NCBI RefSeq assembly: GCF_016903815.1
Contig: NZ_CP069971.1
DNA: 48,644 nucleotides
Source of the DNA: Escherichia coli
GTDB lineage: Bacteria > Pseudomonadota > Gammaproteobacteria > Enterobacterales > Enterobacteriaceae
Reading direction: 5' to 3' (one strand)
Shown: positions 1 through 48,644 of the stretch, piece by piece
Numbering within the stretch: position 1 is the stretch's first letter
How the letters are laid out: every line of letters starts with the position of its first letter
The notes under the pieces: generated by a model
Told to the model about the DNA's origin: nothing
Seen by the model: only the letters and a program-made list of their open reading frames with translations
Database searches by the model: none
Translations under genes and position numbers: made by a program

Positions 1-738
1 ATCTCCGGCCAGTAACTCTTTGGCTTCGCTTTCTGTAAACCTGAGATCGATTAATGCAGAAAGCTGCTGTAATTGGTCTTTTTTGTATTTGCGAATGGCC
101 TTATTTGCGGCCTTCATTTTGACGTGTGACTTCATGCAGCCTTGCAGCTTACGAAGCAACTTAAATAGCGCATCAGGATCATCAGACGAAATTCCATTAC
201 GACCAACACCTGCGGCTTTGCTCTCGTAGTGTGATGCTTTACTTTCGCATTCAACAAACGCTTTTCTTAATAACGCATCAGCTTTAGACAAACGGCGGCG
301 ATGGCCTTTCGCGCTATAATGGTCAACTAAAATCGGCTGGCCTAACGGGATCACATCCAACAGGTCATGCGCTCGCTTATGCGCTACCGCACCTTCTTTT
401 CTGGCTTTTTCTGCACGAGCAATATATCGGGCAAGACGCGCGTTCTGGCGTTCCTGATAGGTGTTTACGTAATCATCTCCGCGCTGCTGCTGTTCAAGCC
501 ATGCTTTGCGCAGATCTTCTGTTACGTCCACCAGCTCCGCAGGGATACAACCAGTTTGGGCTTCATAAGAGTAACCATCCTCATAGATACGCCCATCATC
601 TTCAACAAAGAAAAAGGTTTCGTGCTCATCGCTTTTGACCATACGACCATTAACATGGCGTAATAGGTAGCCAGTATCAGTGCTTAACAAGCTGTTAGGG
701 TTGTTGATCCAGTCAGAAATAATTACTTGTTTATTCAT
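1..738 (-). CDS. hypothetical protein, 5' portion only within window (possibly DUF3560-like); ORF runs off the window start
   Basis: Minus-strand ATG at 736-738 preceded by GGAGA; reverse translation is open to position 1 (MNKQVIISDWINNPNSLLSTDTGYLLRHVNG...). Not in the ORF track because it has no stop in the window. Family assignment is from memory only. Confidence 0.5.
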   Translation of the reverse strand, partial: MNKQVIISDWINNPNSLLSTDTGYLLRHVNGRMVKSDEHETFFFVEDDGRIYEDGYSYEAQTGCIPAELVDVTEDLRKAWLEQQQRGDDYVNTYQERQNARLARYIARAEKARKEGAVAHKRAHDLLDVIPLGQPILVDHYSAKGHRRRLSKADALLRKAFVECESKASHYESKAAGVGRNGISSDDPDALFKLLRKLQGCMKSHVKMKAANKAIRKYKKDQLQQLSALIDLRFTESEAKELLAGD

Positions 739-907: not shown

Positions 908-1285
908 TTACTCTCTTCGCTTTTTCAAATAGTCGACAACATACGCCCTGGCTTTTGCCAGCTTCCGGCGATACTGTCTGAGACTAAGAGAAAGGGCGTG
1001 GGCTTTATCAATATGCGGTGCATTTATGTCGAGGCCCCGAATCTCCCACGCCCCGTATTCAATTCGGACAACCAGCGCCGCAGTCTCATCAACTACCGTG
1101 AGGGCCGTCACCGCTCCCTCGATACTGGTTTCCAGTGAGTCATTTGGTGCGCCGCCCCCTCCGGTAAACTGGCAGCGCGTAACCATCATCATTTCTAACA
1201 TCGACGCGAAACCGCTACGGGCGTTGCAGCCATTGCGCACCCACAGCGCCCATAGCTCAAACAAGCTATCCAGATCGCGTCTCAC
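908..1285 (-). CDS. putative late-gene antiterminator (Q-like, QuuD-type small family)
   Basis: 125 aa; N-terminal LFELWALWVRNG...SGF resembles the LERWGAWA...GF start of small Q-family antiterminators; sits at the end of a nin-like gene string. Confidence 0.45.
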   Translation of the reverse strand: MRRDLDSLFELWALWVRNGCNARSGFASMLEMMMVTRCQFTGGGGAPNDSLETSIEGAVTALTVVDETAALVVRIEYGAWEIRGLDINAPHIDKAHALSLSLRQYRRKLAKARAYVVDYLKKRRE

Positions 1286-1288
1286 TGT

Positions 1289-1621
1289 TCAGATCTCCCG
1301 TATCGTGACGGGATAAAGCGCCTCTACCTGCTTTTTCTTCATGATGTAGACGTCTGTTCGCACACCTTTAGTGTCGACACAATCAATCGTCCCATCGTCA
1401 TAAAACACCATGAAATCAAGTTTATAAACGACACCACCTGGCAGATGAAAAGGCACCTGCATAAGAAACGTCACAACGCGGCCAGCTTTTCTCAGTAGCT
1501 TCAGTTCGCAGTAGTAATCAGCCTCTTTTTTGCTATCAAAAGAGATATCATCGACAACAGTTTTTTTATTGCCGTATTTGCTTTTCCTGGTCGCTGGTTT
1601 GCGAAAGCCGGTATATCTCAT
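1289..1621 (-). CDS. DUF1064-like phage protein
   Basis: 110 aa with KYGNKKTVVDDISFDSKKEADYYCELKLL...VPFHL...DTKGVRTDVY..KKK...YPVTIREI, the characteristic DUF1064 pattern. Confidence 0.65.
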   Translation of the reverse strand: MRYTGFRKPATRKSKYGNKKTVVDDISFDSKKEADYYCELKLLRKAGRVVTFLMQVPFHLPGGVVYKLDFMVFYDDGTIDCVDTKGVRTDVYIMKKKQVEALYPVTIREI

Positions 1622-2022
1622 TTGGTATCCCCTGGTACTTCACCAAGACTAAGATCAAACCCAATTTCGTCTTTAACTGACTGCGGCAACAGCTCCCACG
1701 TCTGCGCACACAAAAATTCATCGGTGCCATAACGCTCAACAAAGCGAGCACAATTACTCAGGGGAGGGTGACGAACGGCAATATGCGGAGGCACGCGCCC
1801 ACCACCAGGCACAACACCGCGATGATGTGGTGCGCACAACCCAAAGCTATGGAAGTGGCAATTCTCATCAACGCTGCCGTAATCAGGATCGTGATGTAGC
1901 TCCGTCCACAGCTCTGGATTCTCAATTTCACGGCCATCAATAATGCAAGCTATGCAACCCACGTGAGTGAGCACCGCTTGTATATAAAGTTTCTCTTTCT
2001 TCGTTGGTGTACGTCCGTTCAT
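1618..2022 (-). CDS. Cys/His-rich putative zinc-binding protein (possible nuclease), function unknown
   Basis: 134 aa; GCIACIIDG...CHFHSFGLCAPHHRG cluster; 4-nt overlap with the downstream gene. Confidence 0.4.
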   Translation of the reverse strand: MNGRTPTKKEKLYIQAVLTHVGCIACIIDGREIENPELWTELHHDPDYGSVDENCHFHSFGLCAPHHRGVVPGGGRVPPHIAVRHPPLSNCARFVERYGTDEFLCAQTWELLPQSVKDEIGFDLSLGEVPGDTK

Positions 2023-2255
2023 CAGCGCCCCTTACCATTGATAAAGAGGTTGAACTCGTTGATTAACTGGACATACATGCTTCTGGCCGCGTAGTTCTTT
2101 GCCAGCTCTTTACGGGATGAGATCCCGCAAAACTCACGCAGAATCACAGAGGCCTCAGAACTGTTTGAAACGTTCTTCCCTGTTTTACTGGTCAGAAAGC
2201 GCCAGAATTGGGGATTCTGGCAATGCATCGCAGCACCGCGAACATAACTACTCAT
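2022..2255 (-). CDS. hypothetical small protein
   Basis: 77 aa ORF that overlaps its neighbours' start/stop codons within the minus-strand operon. Confidence 0.35.
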   Translation of the reverse strand: MSSYVRGAAMHCQNPQFWRFLTSKTGKNVSNSSEASVILREFCGISSRKELAKNYAARSMYVQLINEFNLFINGKGR

Positions 2256-2767
2256 TGATGGCCCCCGTCATTTCTGGTGCTTTTCACCGTGCGGCTTCTT
2301 AAAAACCTGCCATCACGAACAACAGACACTTCTCGTTTACCCAACCTCATTTCACGGCGGTAACATTCAGAAAATGCCTCGTCCGGCATCATATAAATGC
2401 GACGCTTCGCCTCCGTATCCAGAAGGGAACGGCTTGGGGTTACATATAAAAACGACTCATCAATAGGGACAAAACCACGAGCAAGAATTGCTGGCAGAAT
2501 GCCAGGAAGAACGCAGAAAACAGCTCCACGATGCAGCAACATCTGGTACTCCATGACCTCCGTTATCCCCGTGACTACTGTTACGGTGTCACGTCTGTTA
2601 CGGCTGGCAACCAGTCGCTGCACACGTCCAATTTTCTGATCTACAGATAGATGTTTGCTATCGTTATCAATATGATCGATAGCAAATCCTTTAATCGTTT
2701 GATCAAGGTAGTGCACCACCTTCGATTGAATCTGGTGATTATCACCAAAGAAGGCCAGAATCATCAT
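2252..2767 (-). CDS. hypothetical protein
   Basis: 171 aa ORF; start overlaps the Cro-like gene stop by 4 nt. No family recognised. Confidence 0.4.
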   Translation of the reverse strand: MMILAFFGDNHQIQSKVVHYLDQTIKGFAIDHIDNDSKHLSVDQKIGRVQRLVASRNRRDTVTVVTGITEVMEYQMLLHRGAVFCVLPGILPAILARGFVPIDESFLYVTPSRSLLDTEAKRRIYMMPDEAFSECYRREMRLGKREVSVVRDGRFLRSRTVKSTRNDGGHQ

Positions 2768-3258
2768 TCCTCAAGCCTCCCAAGTGCTGAACGCCGGGCG
2801 TTGCTAATCTCCTTATGAATCAGCTCGATATCGCTGGAATCTTTATTCTTAAGCTCCAGCACGGTAATCGCATCACGAACCTCTGAAACGGTTACGTGTG
2901 AGTGTTTCCAGCGAGCAATGAATCGCGGACCGCGTAGATTGCAACGCTCCGCAGGCATCCCCAACTCAGAGAAAACCGCTTTCAGCCTTGATAAGCAGTT
3001 AACAGGGAGATTCCCTTTGATCTTGTTCTGCCGAACCGATGTGCCATCGCTACGCTGGCGCTGACGTTCGGCAAAATCTGCCGCCCATTGCTGGACGTTA
3101 ATCCGGCCTTCCGAATACGCCACCAGCAGCGTCAGGTTATCCGCACGAGGGAATCTCTCGAAGCGATACCAGGCACCAATCAGTGATGACGTAAAGCCAA
3201 ACTTTCTGGCAACACCAATTTGGCCTCCATTTTCGTCAACCCACTCCTGAAAGGTCAT
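2764..3258 (-). CDS. Cro-like HTH regulator with C-terminal extension
   Basis: 164 aa; N-terminal GGQIGVARKFGFTSSLIGAWYRFERFPRADNL resembles Cro/YdaS-type HTH; divergent from the CI-like gene across an operator cluster. Confidence 0.5.
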   Translation of the reverse strand: MTFQEWVDENGGQIGVARKFGFTSSLIGAWYRFERFPRADNLTLLVAYSEGRINVQQWAADFAERQRQRSDGTSVRQNKIKGNLPVNCLSRLKAVFSELGMPAERCNLRGPRFIARWKHSHVTVSEVRDAITVLELKNKDSSDIELIHKEISNARRSALGRLEE

Positions 3259-3274
3259 TTAACGAACTCCAGTT

Positions 3275-3400
3275 AAAACCACGATATGTGGTATTAAAAC
3301 CACATATCGTGAGTTTTTCAATGGGCAAAACAAAAAATAACCTTCTATTTGTGGTCCACCTCTCGTCTTACCATGTGAAAACCACTAAATGTGGTAATGT
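3275..3400. promoter_or_regulatory. divergent promoter/operator region with ACCAC-N5-GTGGT operator sites
   Basis: Cores at 3278-3292 (ACCACGATATGTGGT), 3299-3313 (ACCACATATCGTGAG, the mirror of the first) and 3381-3395 (ACCACTAAATGTGGT), plus a GTGGTCCAC element at 3351-3359. Confidence 0.6.
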
Positions 3401-3432: not shown

Positions 3433-4089
3433 ATGAAAAGCAACGACGAGAACATCAAGAAAGAAATAGGTCTGCGCATTCAGACTCTACGGAAACAATC
3501 CGGCATGACTGCCGGAGATCTCCAGCAAGTCACTGGAATAGGCTTAAGCACCTTGCAGAACTATGAGGCCGGATTAAGACAACCATCTATACCTGCCATC
3601 AAGAAAATCGCGCACGCCCTGAAAGCATCAGCGCCTTATATCGCGTGCTTAACAGATAACCCGTTCCCACCCCAGAATACTAACGCTCCTGTTATTCCTG
3701 GGCTTGTAGCTATAAAAAATGACATAGCATCGCACGCCGGAGAAAAGCCAGTGCTGGCGATAGAACAGGAGATTCTACGAAGCAAGAACATCAACCCATC
3801 GTCTCTGTCAGTTCTCCAGAGCAACGATGAGTTAATGTCACCAACAATATCCCCTGGCTCCCAAGTCCTGATTGATACAGACGATACAGAGATTCATGAG
3901 GGGATCTATGCCCTTGAAGACAGAAATGGCCTGGTTGTTTTGAGGCACTGTAGAGTCATACCGGGTGACAATGCTGTTATGCTGTCAACCGAAAGGGATG
4001 CTGAAATGAACACTAAGCATCTGAATAACGAGGAATTTAAGCGTTATAAAGTTCTGGGCCGCGTAGTTAGTGTTGTCAACTGGTTATGA
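3433..4089 (+). CDS. CI-like repressor (N-terminal HTH, C-terminal LexA/S24-type autopeptidase domain)
   Basis: 218 aa; HTH GLRIQTLRKQSGMTAGDLQQVTGIGLSTLQNYEAG; C-terminal ...VVLRHCRVIPGDNAVMLSTERD...YKVLGRVVSV resembles S24 peptidase. Confidence 0.75.
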   Translation: MKSNDENIKKEIGLRIQTLRKQSGMTAGDLQQVTGIGLSTLQNYEAGLRQPSIPAIKKIAHALKASAPYIACLTDNPFPPQNTNAPVIPGLVAIKNDIASHAGEKPVLAIEQEILRSKNINPSSLSVLQSNDELMSPTISPGSQVLIDTDDTEIHEGIYALEDRNGLVVLRHCRVIPGDNAVMLSTERDAEMNTKHLNNEEFKRYKVLGRVVSVVNWL

Positions 4090-4560: not shown

Positions 4561-4585
4561 AAGCGGGCTAACGCCCGCTTATATG
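4561..4585 (+). terminator. intrinsic terminator hairpin
   Basis: AAGCGGGC-TAAC-GCCCGCTT followed by a T-rich stretch. Confidence 0.5.
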
Positions 4586-4589
4586 ATTA

Positions 4590-4683
4590 TAGATTTATAT
4601 AATTATATAAAACGCTTTTCATCCGCCAAAAAGTTGGTTATGCTTACCTCGTTCTATAAATATAGATTTATAGAATTATATAA
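4590..4683. repeat. two AT-rich composite sites (ATAGATTTATA + TATAATTATATAA) upstream of parA; candidate centromere/operator
   Basis: 4590-4610 ...tagatttatataattatataa and 4661-4683 tatagatttatagaattatataa. Confidence 0.5.
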
Positions 4684-4706
4684 CCAAACACATGGAGTCT
4701 CGACAA

Positions 4707-5360
4707 ATGACTATCTCTGTAGGTATTTTCAACGGAAAAGGCGGCGTAACCAAATCAACAATTGCCCGTGCTTTAGCAGTTGCTTATGCAAAGGCTGGCT
4801 GGAATGTATGCCTGATCGATATGGATGTGCTTAACGGAACGGTAACGCGTTGGGTACAACGCAGAATGGCCAACAATATCGAACCAGCAATCGCGGCGCA
4901 GCCGTGCGGCACACCATCACAAGTCCAGAAAATCATCGAATCAGAAGTATACGACCTGGTTATCGTCGATGGCGGTGCCTACGCATCTGAATCAGTACCG
5001 AAGCTCTCTGAATTTCTGGATATGGTTATTTTGCCAACCAGATTCTCTACCGATGACCTGGAAACCACCGTTAACACAGCTCACGGCATCGTTAAAAAGG
5101 GTGTACCAATCAAGAAAATTTGCATGGTGTTTTCCGGCGCGGCTGAAAACGAAGCTGACTATATTGAAGCCCAAGAGTACCTGGCTAATACGCCATACTT
5201 TGTTGTCGATAAGTACATTCCCCACAAGCCAGCTCTGAGCAAAGCTCAGGATAAGGGCTTAAGCCTTATTGAGTGCTCATACGTTGCGCCACGCAAAAAG
5301 GCAGACGATGTTATCCAGGGGATTATCAATCAGCTTGAGGCTCTGACTACTGCCGCGTAA
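4707..5360 (+). CDS. parA: ParA-family partition ATPase (deviant Walker A)
   Basis: MTISVGIFNGKGGVTKSTIA...CLIDMD; GGAG RBS about 10 nt upstream of the ATG at 4707 (the ORF track starts at an upstream in-frame ATG, 4692). Confidence 0.8.
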   Translation: MTISVGIFNGKGGVTKSTIARALAVAYAKAGWNVCLIDMDVLNGTVTRWVQRRMANNIEPAIAAQPCGTPSQVQKIIESEVYDLVIVDGGAYASESVPKLSEFLDMVILPTRFSTDDLETTVNTAHGIVKKGVPIKKICMVFSGAAENEADYIEAQEYLANTPYFVVDKYIPHKPALSKAQDKGLSLIECSYVAPRKKADDVIQGIINQLEALTTAA

Positions 5361-5391
5361 TATATAATTATAGTTTTATAGATTTATATAA
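5361..5391. repeat. AT-rich palindromic site between parA and the ParG-like gene
   Basis: tatataattatag ttt tatagatttatataa, the same motif family as at 4590-4683. Confidence 0.45.
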
Positions 5392-5403
5392 AAGGGGATA
5401 CAC

Positions 5404-5652
5404 ATGGCCGCACCATCAAAACCACCGAAAAAGAACAGCAAAGGCGTACCGCCATCAATCGAACAACCGCAGGTTTTCGACCCGACTGAAACGCCGACCA
5501 GAACCAAATCAGGTGGGGCACAAATGGCGTTTAACGTCGACCCTGAATTTAAACGCGAGTACAAAACGTTCGCCAGCTCAATGGATATGTCATTGAAAGA
5601 AGTGCTGACAAAATCTTTTGAGTTACTCAAGGCTCAATACAACCAGAAGTAA
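5404..5652 (+). CDS. small partition/centromere-binding protein, ParG-like (predicted ribbon-helix-helix)
   Basis: 82 aa; flexible basic N-terminus and C-terminal MAFNVDPEFKREYKTFASSMDMSLKEVL, RHH-like; immediately downstream of parA. Confidence 0.55.
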   Translation: MAAPSKPPKKNSKGVPPSIEQPQVFDPTETPTRTKSGGAQMAFNVDPEFKREYKTFASSMDMSLKEVLTKSFELLKAQYNQK

Positions 5653-5874: not shown

Positions 5875-5900
5875 AAAAAAGGCCCCCGAAGGGGCCTAAT
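5875..5900 (-). terminator. intrinsic terminator (GGCCCC-CGAA-GGGGCC, T-run on minus strand)
   Basis: Perfect GC hairpin flanked by an A6 run on the plus strand, i.e. T6 on the minus strand; lies between convergent genes. Confidence 0.65.
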
Positions 5901-5902
5901 CG

Positions 5903-6022
5903 CTACTTGCTGCTAATGTTTATCGTCACATTCAGAGCGTTATCAGTAATCTTCCAACCCTCCCCATGTGGCGTAAACAAAGCTCCAGTAACAACGATAA
6001 AAATACACATACAGTATTTTTT
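5903..6022 (-). CDS. small hydrophobic peptide (about 40 aa), function unknown
   Basis: MKKYCMCIFIVVTGALFTPHGEGWKITDNALNVTINISSK with an AGGG RBS, ending at the terminator hairpin. Confidence 0.3.
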   Translation of the reverse strand, partial: KKYCMCIFIVVTGALFTPHGEGWKITDNALNVTINISSK

Positions 6023-6423
6023 CATTGTATGGCCCTTACAGGCCGTTTCACGGCATCCCCACCGACGAAAACAACGCGAGAGCAAGCACGGCTGCTTGTG
6101 CTTGCATGTACGGCAACGGAGAATCCTCCCCTAAAGTCGGTGCCCGGGTGCGAATCGGCGGGAAGGTCCACAGGTATTTTACGATTATTTTAAGATTAGT
6201 TATAGGAAAGAAATTAAACGAAAAAACTCGTTTATTTTCACAAAATCAGTAACCTACCCACAATCTGTGAGTTTGCAGGCACAACAAGAACCACAATTTT
6301 ATGAAGCATAATAGTGGACTATTATTACCTTTTGGGTAAAATTAACTTGCTGCTTGTGCTTGCGTGGTTGTTTATACAACAACGTAATGCTGAAAGGACC
6401 GCGAATCCGATCAGCACGAAAGA

Positions 6424-6483: not shown

Positions 6484-6593
6484 TGTCTCTGTTAAAATCC
6501 CGCCGTATTGACATAAATGCGCCATTGGTGGACACTTTCCTAGCCGTAGCAAAATCTACGGTCGGGATTGGAACCCCGTAGACACAATGGCGC

Positions 6594-6616
6594 ATACCGC
6601 GTTAGCGGTTTTTTTA
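6594..6616 (+). terminator. second terminator-like hairpin in the antirepressor leader
   Basis: ACCGC-GTTA-GCGGT followed by T7. Confidence 0.45.
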
Positions 6617-6781
6617 TGCGTAAAGCACTGCTACACCCAAATTATGGTGGGGCGTGCGGGGGAGTCGTAAGACTCGCCGGTTCGTCATTGTGTCCGGTAG
6701 TTCCAACCCTGCACGTCTCACCACCCAATGATTGGAACCTGACGGTGGTGAGTATCCTTAACCTTTAAGGGAATCATCACA

Positions 6782-9792: not shown

Positions 9793-10173
9793 TTACTTAA
9801 CGAGGAATAAAAATGGTTTATTGTTCGGCGGTGTAATCGGGGCTGGCTCGCTTTTGCTCATGCGATCAGTGTACCAAGCCAACTCCTTGTCAAAGTAAGC
9901 CTGATTAAAATAGGCCATGAATGTAGTTTCAAATCCATAACGACCGCTAATACGCAGCATCTGATTGCCGTTCTCTGTTTCCAGATATACCTGGGCACGT
10001 TCCTGATTCTCCTTCAGCCAGGTTAAAGCCTCATCGCATGAGGACACACGATACTCATCATCGTAGCCGTCATCGATGCGGCTTGAGGAAGAACGGCAAA
10101 TCACGCCAACAGAACCAGCCAGGATAGTTTGAATTTTAAGGAAAGCGTTTTTGCGGATTTTAATCATGCTCAT
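9793..10173 (-). CDS. hypothetical protein (126 aa), first gene downstream of cassette copy 2
   Basis: ORF with a GGAGA RBS supplied by the conserved leader; no family recognised. Confidence 0.5.
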   Translation of the reverse strand: MSMIKIRKNAFLKIQTILAGSVGVICRSSSSRIDDGYDDEYRVSSCDEALTWLKENQERAQVYLETENGNQMLRISGRYGFETTFMAYFNQAYFDKELAWYTDRMSKSEPAPITPPNNKPFLFLVK

Positions 10174-42575: not shown

Positions 42576-42883
42576 GTTAGTTGTGCCTCCGGCGCTGATC
42601 TCCGGCAGTCATAACGCTGGCCAGCTCTACAGCAGACACAACGAAAAGGGCACTAACCAGACTGATTAATGCCCTTGCCTGTTGTGTGCCGGATATCGCC
42701 CGACAACGCTGTTTTGGTAACACGGCTACAGTTCCGTGCCGCTCCAGCTTTTACCCCTTTGCGGATAACAGGCCCTGCCTGTAACTTAGCCCCACGTTCG
42801 CCCGAAATGCGCACCAGGCACGCATAAAGATGAGCACGAAGGAAGTAACTCCACCGCGCTTATCTTTATGTGTGAGAGTGAAT

Positions 42884-42959
42884 TGGTGGCCCCTACCGGA
42901 TTTGAACCGATGACCGTGCGATTATGAGTCGCCTGCTCTAACCACTGAGCTAAGGGGCC
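42884..42959 (-). tRNA. tRNA with CAU anticodon (Met or Ile2-type)
   Basis: 76 nt; GGCCCCTTAGCTCAGTGGTTAGAGCAGGCGACTCATAATCGCACGGTCATCGGTTCAAATCCGGTAGGGGCCACCA; cloverleaf folds by eye, encoded CCA end. Confidence 0.8.
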
Positions 42960-43100
42960 ATATTTGATCTGTTTGTCTGGTGTGGCGCCGCGCACGAAAA
43001 TCCCAGCCAATAAATTCAGGATTTTTGGGCGCGGCGGCATATCAGACAAACATGGTTGATGCGTGCGCCCATGAGAAAAGCGCATAGAATGTTGTAACTA

Positions 43101-43130: not shown

Positions 43131-43338
43131 ACTTTCGGCAGTTGATTTCCCATGCCCTGTTATGAGCCAGAATATCTTTCTTTGTCTGGCGGTCCATAAC
43201 ATCGATGTCGTGATCAGTCAGGTAGATGGGCTTTACCCAATCACAGGCGGTATCAACCACCACCGGGACGCTTCCACGACTCCCGCAGCTCGCGATCAAC
43301 ATCGTCATCAGCCATATGGTTAACACTCTGCTGTACAT
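43129..43338 (-). CDS. o-spanin-like lipoprotein (Rz1-like)
   Basis: 69 aa; lipobox-like LIASCGS; overlaps the 3' end of the i-spanin-like gene in another frame. Confidence 0.5.
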   Translation of the reverse strand: MYSRVLTIWLMTMLIASCGSRGSVPVVVDTACDWVKPIYLTDHDIDVMDRQTKKDILAHNRAWEINCRK

Positions 43339-43531
43339 TCCCCACCTCTTTTGTCACTTCTATACGCCGCTCCGCAGTGGCTTTTACAGCGGCTGCATTC
43401 TCATTAATGCGCTGCTTTTCAGCTTCATCTTCGGCCTTTTCTCGCCCCTTCATACGACCAAAACCAAACGCACCGAATGCAACCAATATAACGGTGCCGA
43501 TAAATGACAAAACGGCTTTCAAACCAGTCAT
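43253..43531 (-). CDS. i-spanin-like protein (Rz-like)
   Basis: 92 aa; N-terminal TM helix then a charged coiled-coil-like segment. Confidence 0.55.
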   Translation of the reverse strand: MTGLKAVLSFIGTVILVAFGAFGFGRMKGREKAEDEAEKQRINENAAAVKATAERRIEVTKEVGNVQQSVNHMADDDVDRELRESWKRPGGG

Positions 43532-44070
43532 ACCACCACTCGCTCTTTCATCCAGCCGTAGACAAACGACTCATTAGCCTCGCGCTTCTCCGCCAGCTCC
43601 AGATAGCGTTCGCCCTGCGTACAGTTCAGCGACGTCAGCATCACCCGTTCGCCGTCTTTTCCCCGATTCCCAAGATAAGCACGTAGCGCATTAATGGTAC
43701 GTGGACCGATTCGTCCGTCTGCATCCAAATCGGGATACAGCTTCCCGCGCAGGTTGAACACATTCAGCCAGCGTTGAAGCATTTTTGACGCCACTGTTGG
43801 CCCCATGTTCACCCCCGTGTCACACAGCTCTGCGGCAATATCAGAGGATAATGCGGCCACCTGATCAAAGCGTGGTCCGTACCAGTAATCAGCCTCAAGG
43901 ATTTCCAGTGCCTGTTCGCGGGTTAAATCGCGCATATCGCCACGGTATCCATGAGCACGGGCAGTGTTCTGAGTAATGCCCCACTTTGTTGGGCCTCCCT
44001 TGTCGTCAGGGTGATCCACATAGCCGCCCTCTTTTCCAAGAACGCTGTTAAAAATCTCATCTTTGGTCAT
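43528..44070 (-). CDS. endolysin, glycoside hydrolase family 108-like
   Basis: ...VLGKEGGYVDHPDDKGGPTKWGIT... N-terminal motif. Confidence 0.75.
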   Translation of the reverse strand: MTKDEIFNSVLGKEGGYVDHPDDKGGPTKWGITQNTARAHGYRGDMRDLTREQALEILEADYWYGPRFDQVAALSSDIAAELCDTGVNMGPTVASKMLQRWLNVFNLRGKLYPDLDADGRIGPRTINALRAYLGNRGKDGERVMLTSLNCTQGERYLELAEKREANESFVYGWMKERVVV

Positions 44071-44353
44071 GATTAAACCCTAATGCGTCAACTATCCGCG
44101 CCAGATTGCCCCTGAAATACAGAACAACGATGCAGATAATCAGATTTCCAATAACCACCAGCCAGTGGGATTCTTGATAAAGACCGAACACATAACGGAA
44201 GGGAACATTGGCGTATACAATGACGTAGATATAAGCCAGAAAGGAAACAAATGGACGATGCCTGGAGTCTTTCCGTCGATAAAGCATCAGCGCCATTACT
44301 ATTACTGTGCAAAGCACCGCATTAATCAGTGCTGACGGGTCACTGCTTACCAT
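44057..44353 (-). CDS. holin/antiholin-like membrane protein
   Basis: Hydrophobic segments; sits between holin and endolysin. Confidence 0.4.
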   Translation of the reverse strand: MVSSDPSALINAVLCTVIVMALMLYRRKDSRHRPFVSFLAYIYVIVYANVPFRYVFGLYQESHWLVVIGNLIICIVVLYFRGNLARIVDALGFNHDQR

Positions 44354-44735
44354 TTGAACCCCCTCCACGTAAGCGGGAAAGCATTCCAAAGATGCTACCG
44401 AGATCCTGGCTGTTTACGAACGTGAGGATTTTAATTGTCAATGCAGCCACAATAACCGCACCAAGTGCATCAAGAGGACGATCGTTGTAGCTGGTCCATT
44501 TGGCAAGAAATGAGCCAACTAACGGCGCTCCAATCACTCCAACAATGAACGATGTAAAGAAATAGCCAATCAGCTTGAGACGGCTAATATTCACCGCTGT
44601 AGCAACATAGAAAACAGCGCCAGCAAATGCCCCGAATACAACGCCGTAATCAATACCAGTTGCAATACCAAAAACGCTGGCCCCCATCAGGCCACCAGCA
44701 GCAACGGCCGTACCGGAAATTGGTTCTGCTGACAT
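44340..44735 (-). CDS. holin
   Basis: 131 aa with several TM segments; GAGGA RBS; first gene of the lysis cassette. Confidence 0.65.
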   Translation of the reverse strand: MSAEPISGTAVAAGGLMGASVFGIATGIDYGVVFGAFAGAVFYVATAVNISRLKLIGYFFTSFIVGVIGAPLVGSFLAKWTSYNDRPLDALGAVIVAALTIKILTFVNSQDLGSIFGMLSRLRGGGSNGKQ

Positions 44736-44782: not shown

Positions 44783-45121
44783 ATAAAGCAACAAATTACG
44801 CGGTAATCGCTTAACGCAGTTTTACTACGTTAAATGAAACACTACACCCAGTTACCACCTAAAACAAGGTTTCCCCATAAAAAAACCTTCATATCGTGGT
44901 TAATCGATCAATAAAAAATCAATGTTCAACTTTTTACCAACCGAACATCCCGACCAGGACTTCCATAATATTCGCCGATATGCCACTGCTTAAGTTGAGT
45001 AATCTTCTCCAACTTAACTCCCATAGAGTCCAGTTTCTGCCATGTTTTCGGTTGTATGTGCTTCATTACCCGCTCTGAATATCTGAATACTGCTCGTAAG
45101 CGCATGGTTTCTCACTACAGC

Positions 45122-47595: not shown

Positions 47596-47961
47596 TCACT
47601 TCAACTCCTCCCGACGACGTTCCTGAAGCTCTAGCATTGCGGCTCGGAAATCCTGCCACCACTCCTCATCTGCAACGGGGGTGTTCCGCTCCAGCACCTT
47701 GTCCGCATCTGCGATCAGATTTGCCAGACTCTTGTCTGAAATCTTCGTTACCGGAGTCGTTGGTTGCTCAACCTGCCCGATAGGTTTTATCGTGCTCAAA
47801 AGGAGGCGACGGCTGGAAAGTGGCGACCCACAACGGCGCCCATCTTCCTTGCGATATGTTTCTTTCGGACCAACACACCAAGTTGTCGGCGTTTCGCGTA
47901 ACTTCACTTTTTTCTCACCATCAATGGTGATGATTATTCCGGTATGGGTTTTGATGCTCAT
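47596..47961 (-). CDS. hypothetical protein
   Basis: 121 aa ORF. Confidence 0.4.
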   Translation of the reverse strand: MSIKTHTGIIITIDGEKKVKLRETPTTWCVGPKETYRKEDGRRCGSPLSSRRLLLSTIKPIGQVEQPTTPVTKISDKSLANLIADADKVLERNTPVADEEWWQDFRAAMLELQERRREELK

Positions 47962-48260
47962 GCCACAGCCCCTCTCAACGGCTTAACTTTGGCTAATAAG
48001 GTGTTAAACAACATGGAGTTAGGGTTCATGCCAAATGGCAATTCCGGTTTAGCGGAGTAGTACAGGCAACCATTTATTTTCCTGGTTGTTATCTGTCCTT
48101 CGGCAACCATGCTTCTCAGTCTGCAACGCATAGAGTTCTGCGACACACCAATGTGCTCCGCGATTACGTCCACTTTTGAACATGGGTGATCGGTCAGGAA
48201 ATTAATCACATCTTGGGGGTTAATAATTTTGCGTTTCATTGTCGAGGCGTCCTTATACAT
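47958..48260 (-). CDS. putative winged-helix DNA-binding protein (PapI/FaeA-like)
   Basis: ...INFLTDHPCSKVDVIAEHIGVSQNSMRCRLRSMVAEGQITTRK... Confidence 0.4.
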   Translation of the reverse strand: MYKDASTMKRKIINPQDVINFLTDHPCSKVDVIAEHIGVSQNSMRCRLRSMVAEGQITTRKINGCLYYSAKPELPFGMNPNSMLFNTLLAKVKPLRGAVA

Positions 48261-48261
48261 T

Positions 48262-48285
48262 TATATAAATATATAATTCTATATA
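48262..48285. repeat. AT-rich palindromic site (tatataaatatataattctatata)
   Basis: Same motif family as the other seven copies. Confidence 0.45.
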
Positions 48286-48316: not shown

Positions 48317-48644
48317 TCAGGCTTTCAATAGCGATTCTTTCAGATATCGGGCATCAGCCAGGGCATTTGGAGTAATTTTGCGAATCCATGCATTACGGGT
48401 TGGACTCCACTTAAAGGCGCGTGATTTAAGCAGCGAACGAATGTTTGCCTCTGGTTTGCCAGGGAAATAAAACAGGATGCGGTTATCCTCTGGATCTATC
48501 TCCATAGAAAAGTCGTCGTATTCTTCGCGCTGTGCTCCTGTTACAGACTTGACCGATTCAAGCTCCTTAATACGGCTCTGTAGTCGTTTGATCTCGGCGT
48601 TATTGTTGCTCAGTACGTATGAAGGGAATCCGATGCGCCCAGAA
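48317..48644 (-). CDS. hypothetical protein, 5' end beyond the window
   Basis: The reading frame stays open from 48505 to the window end. Confidence 0.4.
   Translation of the reverse strand, partial: SGRIGFPSYVLSNNNAEIKRLQSRIKELESVKSVTGAQREEYDDFSMEIDPEDNRILFYFPGKPEANIRSLLKSRAFKWSPTRNAWIRKITPNALADARYLKESLLKA

Follow-up and report, generated by a model that had tools for sequence, protein, structure and literature searches.

The sequence analysed here, a 48,644-nucleotide (nt) stretch from Escherichia coli (contig NZ_CP069971.1; hereafter the window), is a complete circular phage-plasmid of 48.6 kb. Between positions 3258 and 908 it carries six co-directional and tightly packed open reading frames (ORFs) on the minus strand, the last of which encodes a 125-amino-acid (aa) protein related to the Q antiterminator of phage 21. 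Downstream of the Q-like gene lies the first of three 114-nt direct repeats, referred to as cassettes, all of which are on the minus strand. Its promoter is located 92 nt after the Q-like stop codon and precedes a DUF3560 gene. A first-pass annotation of the window had described this order, from the Q-like gene to cassette copy 1 to a DUF3560-like gene, and had placed the lysis genes about 44 kb away. The order was confirmed, whereas the distance was wrong. Coordinates of the features are collected in Table 1.

Gene order from the repressor to the late genes

A cI/LexA-type repressor gene is divergent from the first gene of the six-gene cluster. The region between them contains a promoter (TTGAAA-17-TTTAAT) overlapped by an inverted repeat with 12-bp arms (3280-3311), which is presumed from its sequence to be the cI operator. 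The divergent repressor and the overlapped promoter therefore mark 3258..908 as a repressor-controlled early-right operon. As for phage 21 Q (Q21), the gene of interest is found in an early operon of this kind, on the strand of the lysis and late genes and upstream of them. This synteny, comprising a divergent cI-like repressor, a Q-containing operon, 4-9 kb of accessory genes and a holin, is kept in relatives with Q identities of 35-65%, the lowest value (~35%) being that of Vibrio phage PhiPS02.

The linear record is opened within the DUF3560 gene, after the Q-like gene. When the end and the start of the window were joined, the sequence aligned contiguously with circular relatives, and the DUF3560 gene is annotated as intact beside the Q-like gene in vB_YpM_41 and pP136-7. 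The junction is interrupted only by the loss of two nucleotides (CA) that all relatives have, 5 nt before the window end (48638-48644). This gap shifts the reading frame of the DUF3560 gene once the ends are joined and is most likely an artefact of the assembly end. The intact orthologue is 355 aa long and matches PF12083 over residues 94-216 (E = 8.3e-31). Over the first 6 kb compared, the window is 99% identical to the Yersinia phages vB_YpM_39/41/44, which are circular records and for which a literature search found no paper. It is also matched by 64 plasmid records, mostly non-mobilizable E. coli plasmids and mostly of ~48 kb. The element is a circular ~48-kb myovirus-type phage-plasmid of Escherichia and Yersinia with RepA and ParA; the pSLy3 phage-plasmid group was considered and is a different element, consisting of ~110-kb siphophages. 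Since the junction is contiguous in the circular relatives, the 44-kb separation is a coordinate artefact and no rearrangement is needed. The rearranged genome put forward as one explanation in the first-pass annotation is only circularly permuted, as the order of Q, accessory block, terminator and holin is kept in relatives.

With the circle closed, the minus strand reads in the order Q-like gene, cassette copy 1, DUF3560 gene with about seven small genes, terminator, lysis, packaging, head and tail. Going downstream from the Q-like stop codon, the lysis genes are reached after 907 + 3909 = 4816 nt and about eight ORFs, still on the minus strand. All late genes are on one strand; behind the lysis cluster follow ParB-like genes, terminase, portal, major head, sheath, tape measure and tail fibre. 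The canonical layout, in which lysis genes directly follow Q and the late-promoter unit, is not found here, nor is it found in the relatives, where the gap measures 4-9 kb.

The lysis genes are guarded by a strong intrinsic terminator (a stem of 11 bp, 7 of them GC pairs, followed by T9) that stands 21 nt before the holin ATG (44735), with 19 nt between the end of its stem and the ATG. The holin Shine-Dalgarno (SD) sequence directly follows the T-tract. This arrangement leaves no room for a promoter between terminator and SD, so the holin can be expressed only by read-through. Further co-directional terminators stand ahead of the methylase, ParB-like and packaging genes. Intrinsic terminators between promoter and late genes were likewise found in three of the relatives compared (numbered contigs L002, L003 and L027), and six strong co-directional ones separate Q from lysis in L003. 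The terminator-SD-holin design recurs in L002 (14941-14990), L020 (~16.3 kb) and L027 (11389-11436). In one group of relatives (L015/L017/L018/L023) the same terminator-SD-start design precedes orthologues of p99, a regulator described below. Judged from sequence, the design implies expression by regulated or partial read-through. Just before its holin, PhiPS02 carries a promoter (TTGAAA-17-TATGTT), whose leader contains a -10-like TATTGT, and a terminator.

The 196-nt region in front of the window's holin (44935-44740, minus strand) is strongly structured, with a minimum free energy of -60.9 kcal/mol (z = -4.4), and has two hairpins ahead of the terminator, much like a short leader or a 6S-like RNA, with only a weak promoter candidate upstream. 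A half-site-like match to the cI operator within it (44887-44898) has two mismatches and was not compelling.

The 125-aa protein and phage 21 Q

The 125-aa protein drew a blank in Pfam when searched singly, and a wider family profile was required to place it. Its family was found by profile search of 1.84 billion representatives and comprises ~130 clusters, at 50% identity, of proteins of 110-150 aa. Two alignments were used, one of close homologues only (A2) and one of the wide family with 109 members (A3). The A2 profile found no relative in the PDB except for a marginal match to the helix-turn-helix (HTH) of Tc3. The A3 profile matched phage 21 Q (6jnx/6p18) at E = 2.5e-5, with residues 5-91 aligned to Q21 residues 12-95. 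This alignment takes in the LELWGAW motif as well as the non-HTH N-terminal helix and the linker, and the matched Q21 fragment is itself PF06530 (E = 9e-23). PF06530 is touched by 13 of the 109 members at E<=0.1 and by only 4 at E<=0.001. The 125-aa protein is not among the members of PF06530, and the link is at superfamily level only, through the A3 profile.

Structure prediction gave a similar picture. The AlphaFold2 model of the protein is all-helical with a pLDDT of 87, and Foldseek searches with the first model ranked Q21 chains first (probability ~0.9, TM ~0.5). The longest structural alignments, of 103-104 residues, were to Q21 and AlpA. In the model, a sigma-region-4-like helical HTH core is packed against an N-terminal helix bearing LELWA-W. 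The structure of 21Q has been described as a sigma-R4-like H3-H6 core on which H1 is packed like an anti-sigma factor (PMC6606751). The predicted fold agrees with this description. From the family profile and the model it is concluded that the 125-aa protein is a remote, shorter and divergent member of the phage 21/82 Q superfamily, outside PF06530 as currently defined. The Q-like call of the first-pass annotation is upheld as remote homology, and its own suggestion that the call might be wrong found no support in the family profile, the PF06530 matches or the Foldseek ranking.

A similarity to the NCBIfam PA0613 family (NF051483) was also observed. It is weak and full-length, and was seen for the query and for 7 of 10 further members tested (E = 1e-6 to 8e-4), at scores of 20-29 bits compared to a curated cut-off of 100 bits. 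The PA0613 proteins, encoded by a small ORF of the Pseudomonas aeruginosa pyocin regulatory region, may possibly be Q-like as well. In the literature library searched, no paper mentions PA0613 together with antitermination, and no published PA0613 function was found. VP882 was considered as a characterised relative and rejected, as both its annotated Q (256 aa) and the 123-aa ORF before its lysis genes are unrelated.

Promoter cassettes, iterons and the spacer dyad

Each cassette consists of iterons, a sigma-70 promoter with a dyad in its spacer, a leader with a hairpin, an SD and an ATG, and leads into a different gene. Relatives have 2-4 copies per genome, with the same architecture and group-specific sequence. 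No Rfam family matches the cassettes. The leader hairpin begins within 2-5 nt of the predicted 5' end. Pairing holds in 91.7% of cells, as compared to <=40% in slid controls, with compensatory changes in 5 of its 8 pairs, and its G-U pairs occur on this strand only. The same hairpin was obtained when single sequences from each of the three groups of relatives were folded by minimum free energy. The covariation, the strand-specific G-U pairs and the agreeing folds together identify the hairpin as an RNA element. It would most simply act as a 5' stabiliser, or it may be a pause signal or a protein-binding site.

The iterons occur in arrays of 3-4 AT-rich units of 8 bp (TATAnAnn), and the same units are found in the cassettes and at the partition locus. 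Outside the partition locus, every cassette has an array, one more follows the DUF3560 gene and another precedes tRNA-Met; the iteron search gave six matches compared to zero expected. In three groups of relatives, the iterons at parA and those of the cassettes have changed sequence in step with each other. Group-specific iterons are present upstream of parA in 14 relatives, and iterons in relatives adjoin the holin terminator. Given this recurrence at the partition locus and the parallel change, the iterons are most likely partition-protein sites, those of the cassettes most likely sites for the ParG-like protein.

The dyad (TAGG-N9-CCTA) lies between -35 and -10 and overlaps the -10. It had looked like perfect compensatory covariation, but closer inspection showed strict conservation only of the outer TAGG/CCTA and of the right arm. 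A fourth dyad promoter, lacking iterons and leader hairpin, precedes the gene for p99, a 99-aa HTH protein of XRE type, and also drives a 96-aa gene (region 12300-11650, minus strand). Orthologues of p99 were found in 13 of 13 cassette-bearing viral contigs and not in three Q-bearing contigs without cassettes, and in all 12 distinct loci examined p99 lies behind a dyad promoter. Such a pattern has the signature of an autoregulated repressor with its regulon, and p99 is most likely the dyad binder. The cI operator motif was absent from the cassettes, which are therefore not under direct cI control.

The first-pass annotation had also proposed that the cassettes respond to Q. In this scheme they would be Q-utilisation promoters, equivalents of pR' in three copies: Q would bind the 17-bp spacer dyad, load on initiating RNA polymerase and carry it through the downstream terminators. 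Lysis would then depend on copy 1, packaging and morphogenesis on copy 3, and an accessory gene on copy 2. Copy 1 does lie 92 nt after the Q stop, as lambda pR' would, and in five relatives (L013, L014, L022, L006 and L021) one copy lies within 60-450 nt after Q. Behind both copy 1 and copy 3 come short gene(s), strong co-directional terminators and then lysis or packaging genes; for copy 3, the terminators at 41387-41364 and 40688-40667 are followed by ParB-like, terminase, portal, head and tail genes. The conserved dyad also occupies the same place in the spacer as the Q-binding elements (QBEs) of 21Q and lambda (PMC6606751). However, it is a 17-bp inverted repeat, as in lambda-type operators, whereas the 21Q QBE consists of two 6-bp direct repeats (PMC6606751). 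Neither a direct-repeat QBE nor a -10-like pause element was found conserved in the cassette leaders, and an ATACCCG direct repeat of the window is not kept in relatives.

The distribution of the cassettes argues further against this scheme. In relatives with 59-65% identical Q, they form a cluster located 6.5-9 kb upstream of Q. Each of them drives a single small gene that runs up against a convergent gene, and late genes are absent behind them. Q is followed there only by iterons, a ribosome-binding site and the next gene. Five relatives (L003, L019, L020, L024 and L027) have Q and no cassette in the regions compared, and several of the cassette-less relatives keep the terminator before the holin. 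The dyad, by comparison, co-occurs with p99 in every case (13/13) and drives p99 itself; it tracks p99 and not Q. Control of the cassettes by Q is thus unlikely, though it retains more plausibility than the other alternatives considered below.

Several features lie outside these main subjects. A tRNA-Met gene (42959-42884, minus strand) is present just after the lysis genes. A listed 99-aa ORF (42786-43085, minus strand) overlaps it on the same strand and is probably no real gene. Adjoining the tail genes are plasmid-maintenance functions annotated in relatives, namely a HigB2/RelE-type toxin with an HTH antitoxin (HigB2/HigA; 11411-10759, minus strand) and the RepA initiator (13848-12868, minus strand).

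Table 1. Features of the window by position (RHH, ribbon-helix-helix)
Feature	Position	Strand	Basis or remarks
DUF3560 gene, 5' part	1..738	-	starts at 738, runs off window start
Cassette copy 1	847-734	-	drives DUF3560 gene (ATG 738)
Copy 1 iterons, three 8-bp AT-rich	846-822	-	TATATAAT TATAGATT TATATAAA
Copy 1 -35	816-811	-	TTTACA
Copy 1 dyad, 17 bp	808-792	-	TGGGAAAAAATTTCCTA, in 17-nt spacer
Copy 1 -10	793-788	-	TAAGGT (TATGAT in copy 3)
Copy 1 leader hairpin	778-755	-	leader ~45 nt; covariation
Copy 1 SD	749-746	-	GGAG; ATG 738
Q-like protein, 125 aa	908..1285	-	remote homologue of phage 21 Q
DUF1064 / Holliday-junction-resolvase-like protein, 110 aa	1289..1621	-	phrog_190, E 7e-38
Ref-like (RecA-dependent, HNH) nuclease, 134 aa	1618..2022	-	phrog_2321; RefSeq name; PF16786 in relatives
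77-aa ORF, function unknown	2022..2255	-	phrog_5358
171-aa ORF, function unknown	2252..2767	-	phrog_7047
164-aa ORF, function unknown	2764..3258	-	ORF list; first of early-right operon
cI/LexA-type repressor gene	3433..4089	+	phrog_4, E 1.8e-27; divergent from 164-aa gene
Partition locus	4580..5652	+	iteron arrays, parA, ParG-like gene
Iteron arrays, partition locus	4580-4611, 4653-4685, 5361-5393	+	two upstream of parA, one before ParG-like gene
parA	4707-5360	+	RefSeq name; Pfam CbiA/ParA in relatives
ParG-like gene, 82 aa	5404-5652	+	RHH nature judged by eye; phrog_6024 has no function
ryfA	5875-6171	-	Rfam, gathering level
isrK	6543-6615	+	Rfam, gathering level
C4 antisense RNA	6640-6728	+	Rfam, gathering level
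ORF6N / antirepressor-like gene, 393 aa	6970-8151	+	just downstream of Rfam matches
Cassette copy 2	10283-10170	-	drives 126-aa ORF 10173..9793, phrog_8090
Copy 2 leader hairpin	10214-10191	-	covariation
p99, XRE-type HTH protein, 99 aa	11937..12236	-	behind fourth dyad promoter
Fourth dyad promoter	12300-12240	-	TTGCCA-17-TACCAT; dyad TAGGAAAAGATTTCCTA at 12271-12255
Terminator behind cassette copy 3	40688-40667	-	terminator search
Terminator behind cassette copy 3	41387-41364	-	terminator search
Cassette copy 3	41985-41872	-	TTTGCA-17-TATGAT; drives 89-aa ORF
Copy 3 leader hairpin	41916-41893	-	covariation
Further co-directional terminator	42676-42646	-	terminator search
Lysis cluster: holin, holin, endolysin, Rz-like spanin	44735..43253	-	gene calls
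Intrinsic terminator, strong	44782-44755	-	11-bp stem, T9
Dispersed iteron arrays, five sites	846-822, 10282-10258, 41984-41960, 48283-48259, 43120-43082	-	besides partition locus
MarR-like ORF	~48239..47958	-	array 48259..48283 directly upstream
DUF3560 gene, 3' part	48317..48644	-	across window ends; 2-nt gap relative to relatives

Proposed late-gene control and comparison with known systems

The explanation that best accounts for these results, and which is held to be probable, is that the 125-aa protein is a Q-like antiterminator that loads elsewhere than on the cassettes, and that the cassettes serve accessory genes as portable promoter modules under the control of p99 and the ParG-like protein. 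Upon induction, the cI-like repressor would leave the early-right promoter and Q would be made. Q would then make RNA polymerase resistant to the terminator ahead of the holin and, in the same manner, to the co-directional terminators that precede the methylase, ParB-like and terminase genes, which would turn on lysis and morphogenesis. Circularity, gene order, remote homology to Q21, the terminators, the anatomy and covariation of the cassettes and the phyletic patterns were observed directly in the sequences, whereas the antitermination activity, the place where Q loads and the identity of the proteins on dyad and iterons are inferred. Once the circle is closed, the layout from Q to lysis is close to ordinary overall. 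Accessory genes between Q and lysis are already known from Stx phages, and what is new here is the divergent Q member.

Several results weigh against this explanation. The putative antiterminator has no significant Pfam match, PF06530 included, its PHROG family is without assigned function, and every named homologue is annotated as 'hypothetical'. Sigma70_ECF models are touched by 17 of the 109 family members, about as often as PF06530 (13). No Q-binding element or sigma-dependent pause element was identifiable anywhere, and the stretch from the accessory block to the holin terminator, when searched for a strong sigma-70 promoter, yielded only a weak TTAAGC-17-TATTAT (from 44993) that matches at 8 of 12 positions. 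The candidate roles of p99 at the dyad and of ParG at the iterons were assigned by co-occurrence and covariation across 16 related contigs.

Some of these points would also suit a stand-alone sigma-region-4-like regulator, an activator, repressor or sigma appropriator that shares ancestry with Q21 and is not an antiterminator, in which case the late-gene terminators would be overcome otherwise or by leaky read-through. Such a role would be in keeping with the balance of Sigma70_ECF over PF06530 matches, with the missing QBE and pause site, and with the length of the protein (125 aa compared to 162 aa for Q21), as parts of the RNA-exit-channel apparatus may be missing. Most relatives, moreover, have the gene inside an operon without an adjacent promoter. 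However, the Q21 profile match covers the non-HTH N-terminal helix and the linker (residues 5-91), and the structural alignments to Q21 and AlpA are the longest obtained. Relatives also keep the gene at the end of the early operon, with terminator-guarded lysis genes downstream, and no second antiterminator candidate was seen in the window. A regulator of this type is considered improbable.

An equally improbable reading is one of composite control, in which the partition protein would act on the iterons, the XRE repressor on the dyad, and the Q-like factor on cassette-started or passing transcripts. If it were true, partition state, establishment and accessory genes, and late antitermination would be wired together in one reusable 114-nt module. 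It would also extend the link between Sop and late genes in N15 to another partition type and to a new Q branch that includes the PA0613 proteins. The remaining alternative, that rearrangement or mis-assembly had split Q from the lysis genes, as the linear coordinates and the 2-nt discrepancy at the window end could suggest, is already refuted by the sequence comparisons, since gene order is identical and the junction contiguous in the three phage genomes and the 64 circular plasmids, and synteny is retained in distant relatives.

The Q-like antiterminator that loads elsewhere would attach a testable function, Q21-like antitermination, to a family left as 'hypothetical' by Pfam, PHROGs and RefSeq. 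This family sits in a phage-plasmid lineage that is widespread in E. coli (64 plasmid records) and also occurs in Yersinia and Vibrio phages. The by-products of the analysis, namely the promoter module, the dyad with its XRE regulator, the 5' hairpin and the terminator-SD-holin design, may carry more weight than the original question. They offer entry points to the coordination of lytic development with plasmid maintenance and accessory genes in phage-plasmids. That a Q gene appeared to be without lysis genes was an artefact of linearisation, a caveat for any window-based scan of circular replicons.

Compared to phage 21/82 Q, the 125-aa protein shows remote homology over the N-terminal two thirds and the same predicted fold class, and its gene likewise occupies a repressor-controlled early-right operon upstream of terminator-guarded lysis and late genes. 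It differs in its length and in falling below Pfam detection. Unlike the phage 21/82 arrangement, there is no recognisable adjacent unit of pR', QBE, pause site and tR', and in many relatives the Q-like gene is directly followed by another gene without a promoter. The unit before the holin of PhiPS02 resembles a classical pR'-tR', but adjoins the holin and not Q.

Stx phages such as 933W carry Q, pR', tR', tRNAs and stx, followed by S, R and Rz. The element described here is similar in having an accessory block between Q and lysis (DUF3560, MarR-like and several unknowns), comparable to the moron or stx block, a tRNA gene in the late region, co-directional genes, and terminators that gate lysis. 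In contrast to the Stx phages, its strongest terminator is located directly before the holin and not directly after the promoter, its first downstream gene (DUF3560) has a promoter cassette of its own, and the element is a plasmid-prophage with RepA and ParA.

Among phage-plasmids, N15 is reported to have dispersed centromere sites and an effect of Sop on late gene expression (Ravin, Rech and Lane 2008, cited as ref. 39 in PMC11652158). The present element resembles it in carrying candidate partition-protein sites scattered beside late and regulatory elements. It differs in that its partition system appears type Ib-like (small ParA, RHH ParG-like protein and 8-bp iterons), whereas N15 has SopABC with inverted repeats. 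P1 has a dispersed operator regulon, with C1 operators and Lpa late promoters, and an immI module with C4 RNA. The adjoining ryfA, isrK and C4 matches and the ORF6N gene of the window make up, by sequence similarity, a predicted P1 immI-like (c4/ant) secondary immunity module. As in P1, one short operator is repeated at several promoters around the genome of a phage-plasmid. Unlike in P1, the operator sequence and its candidate regulator p99 are unrelated to C1 or Lpa, and each cassette is a complete 114-nt module, leader and SD included.

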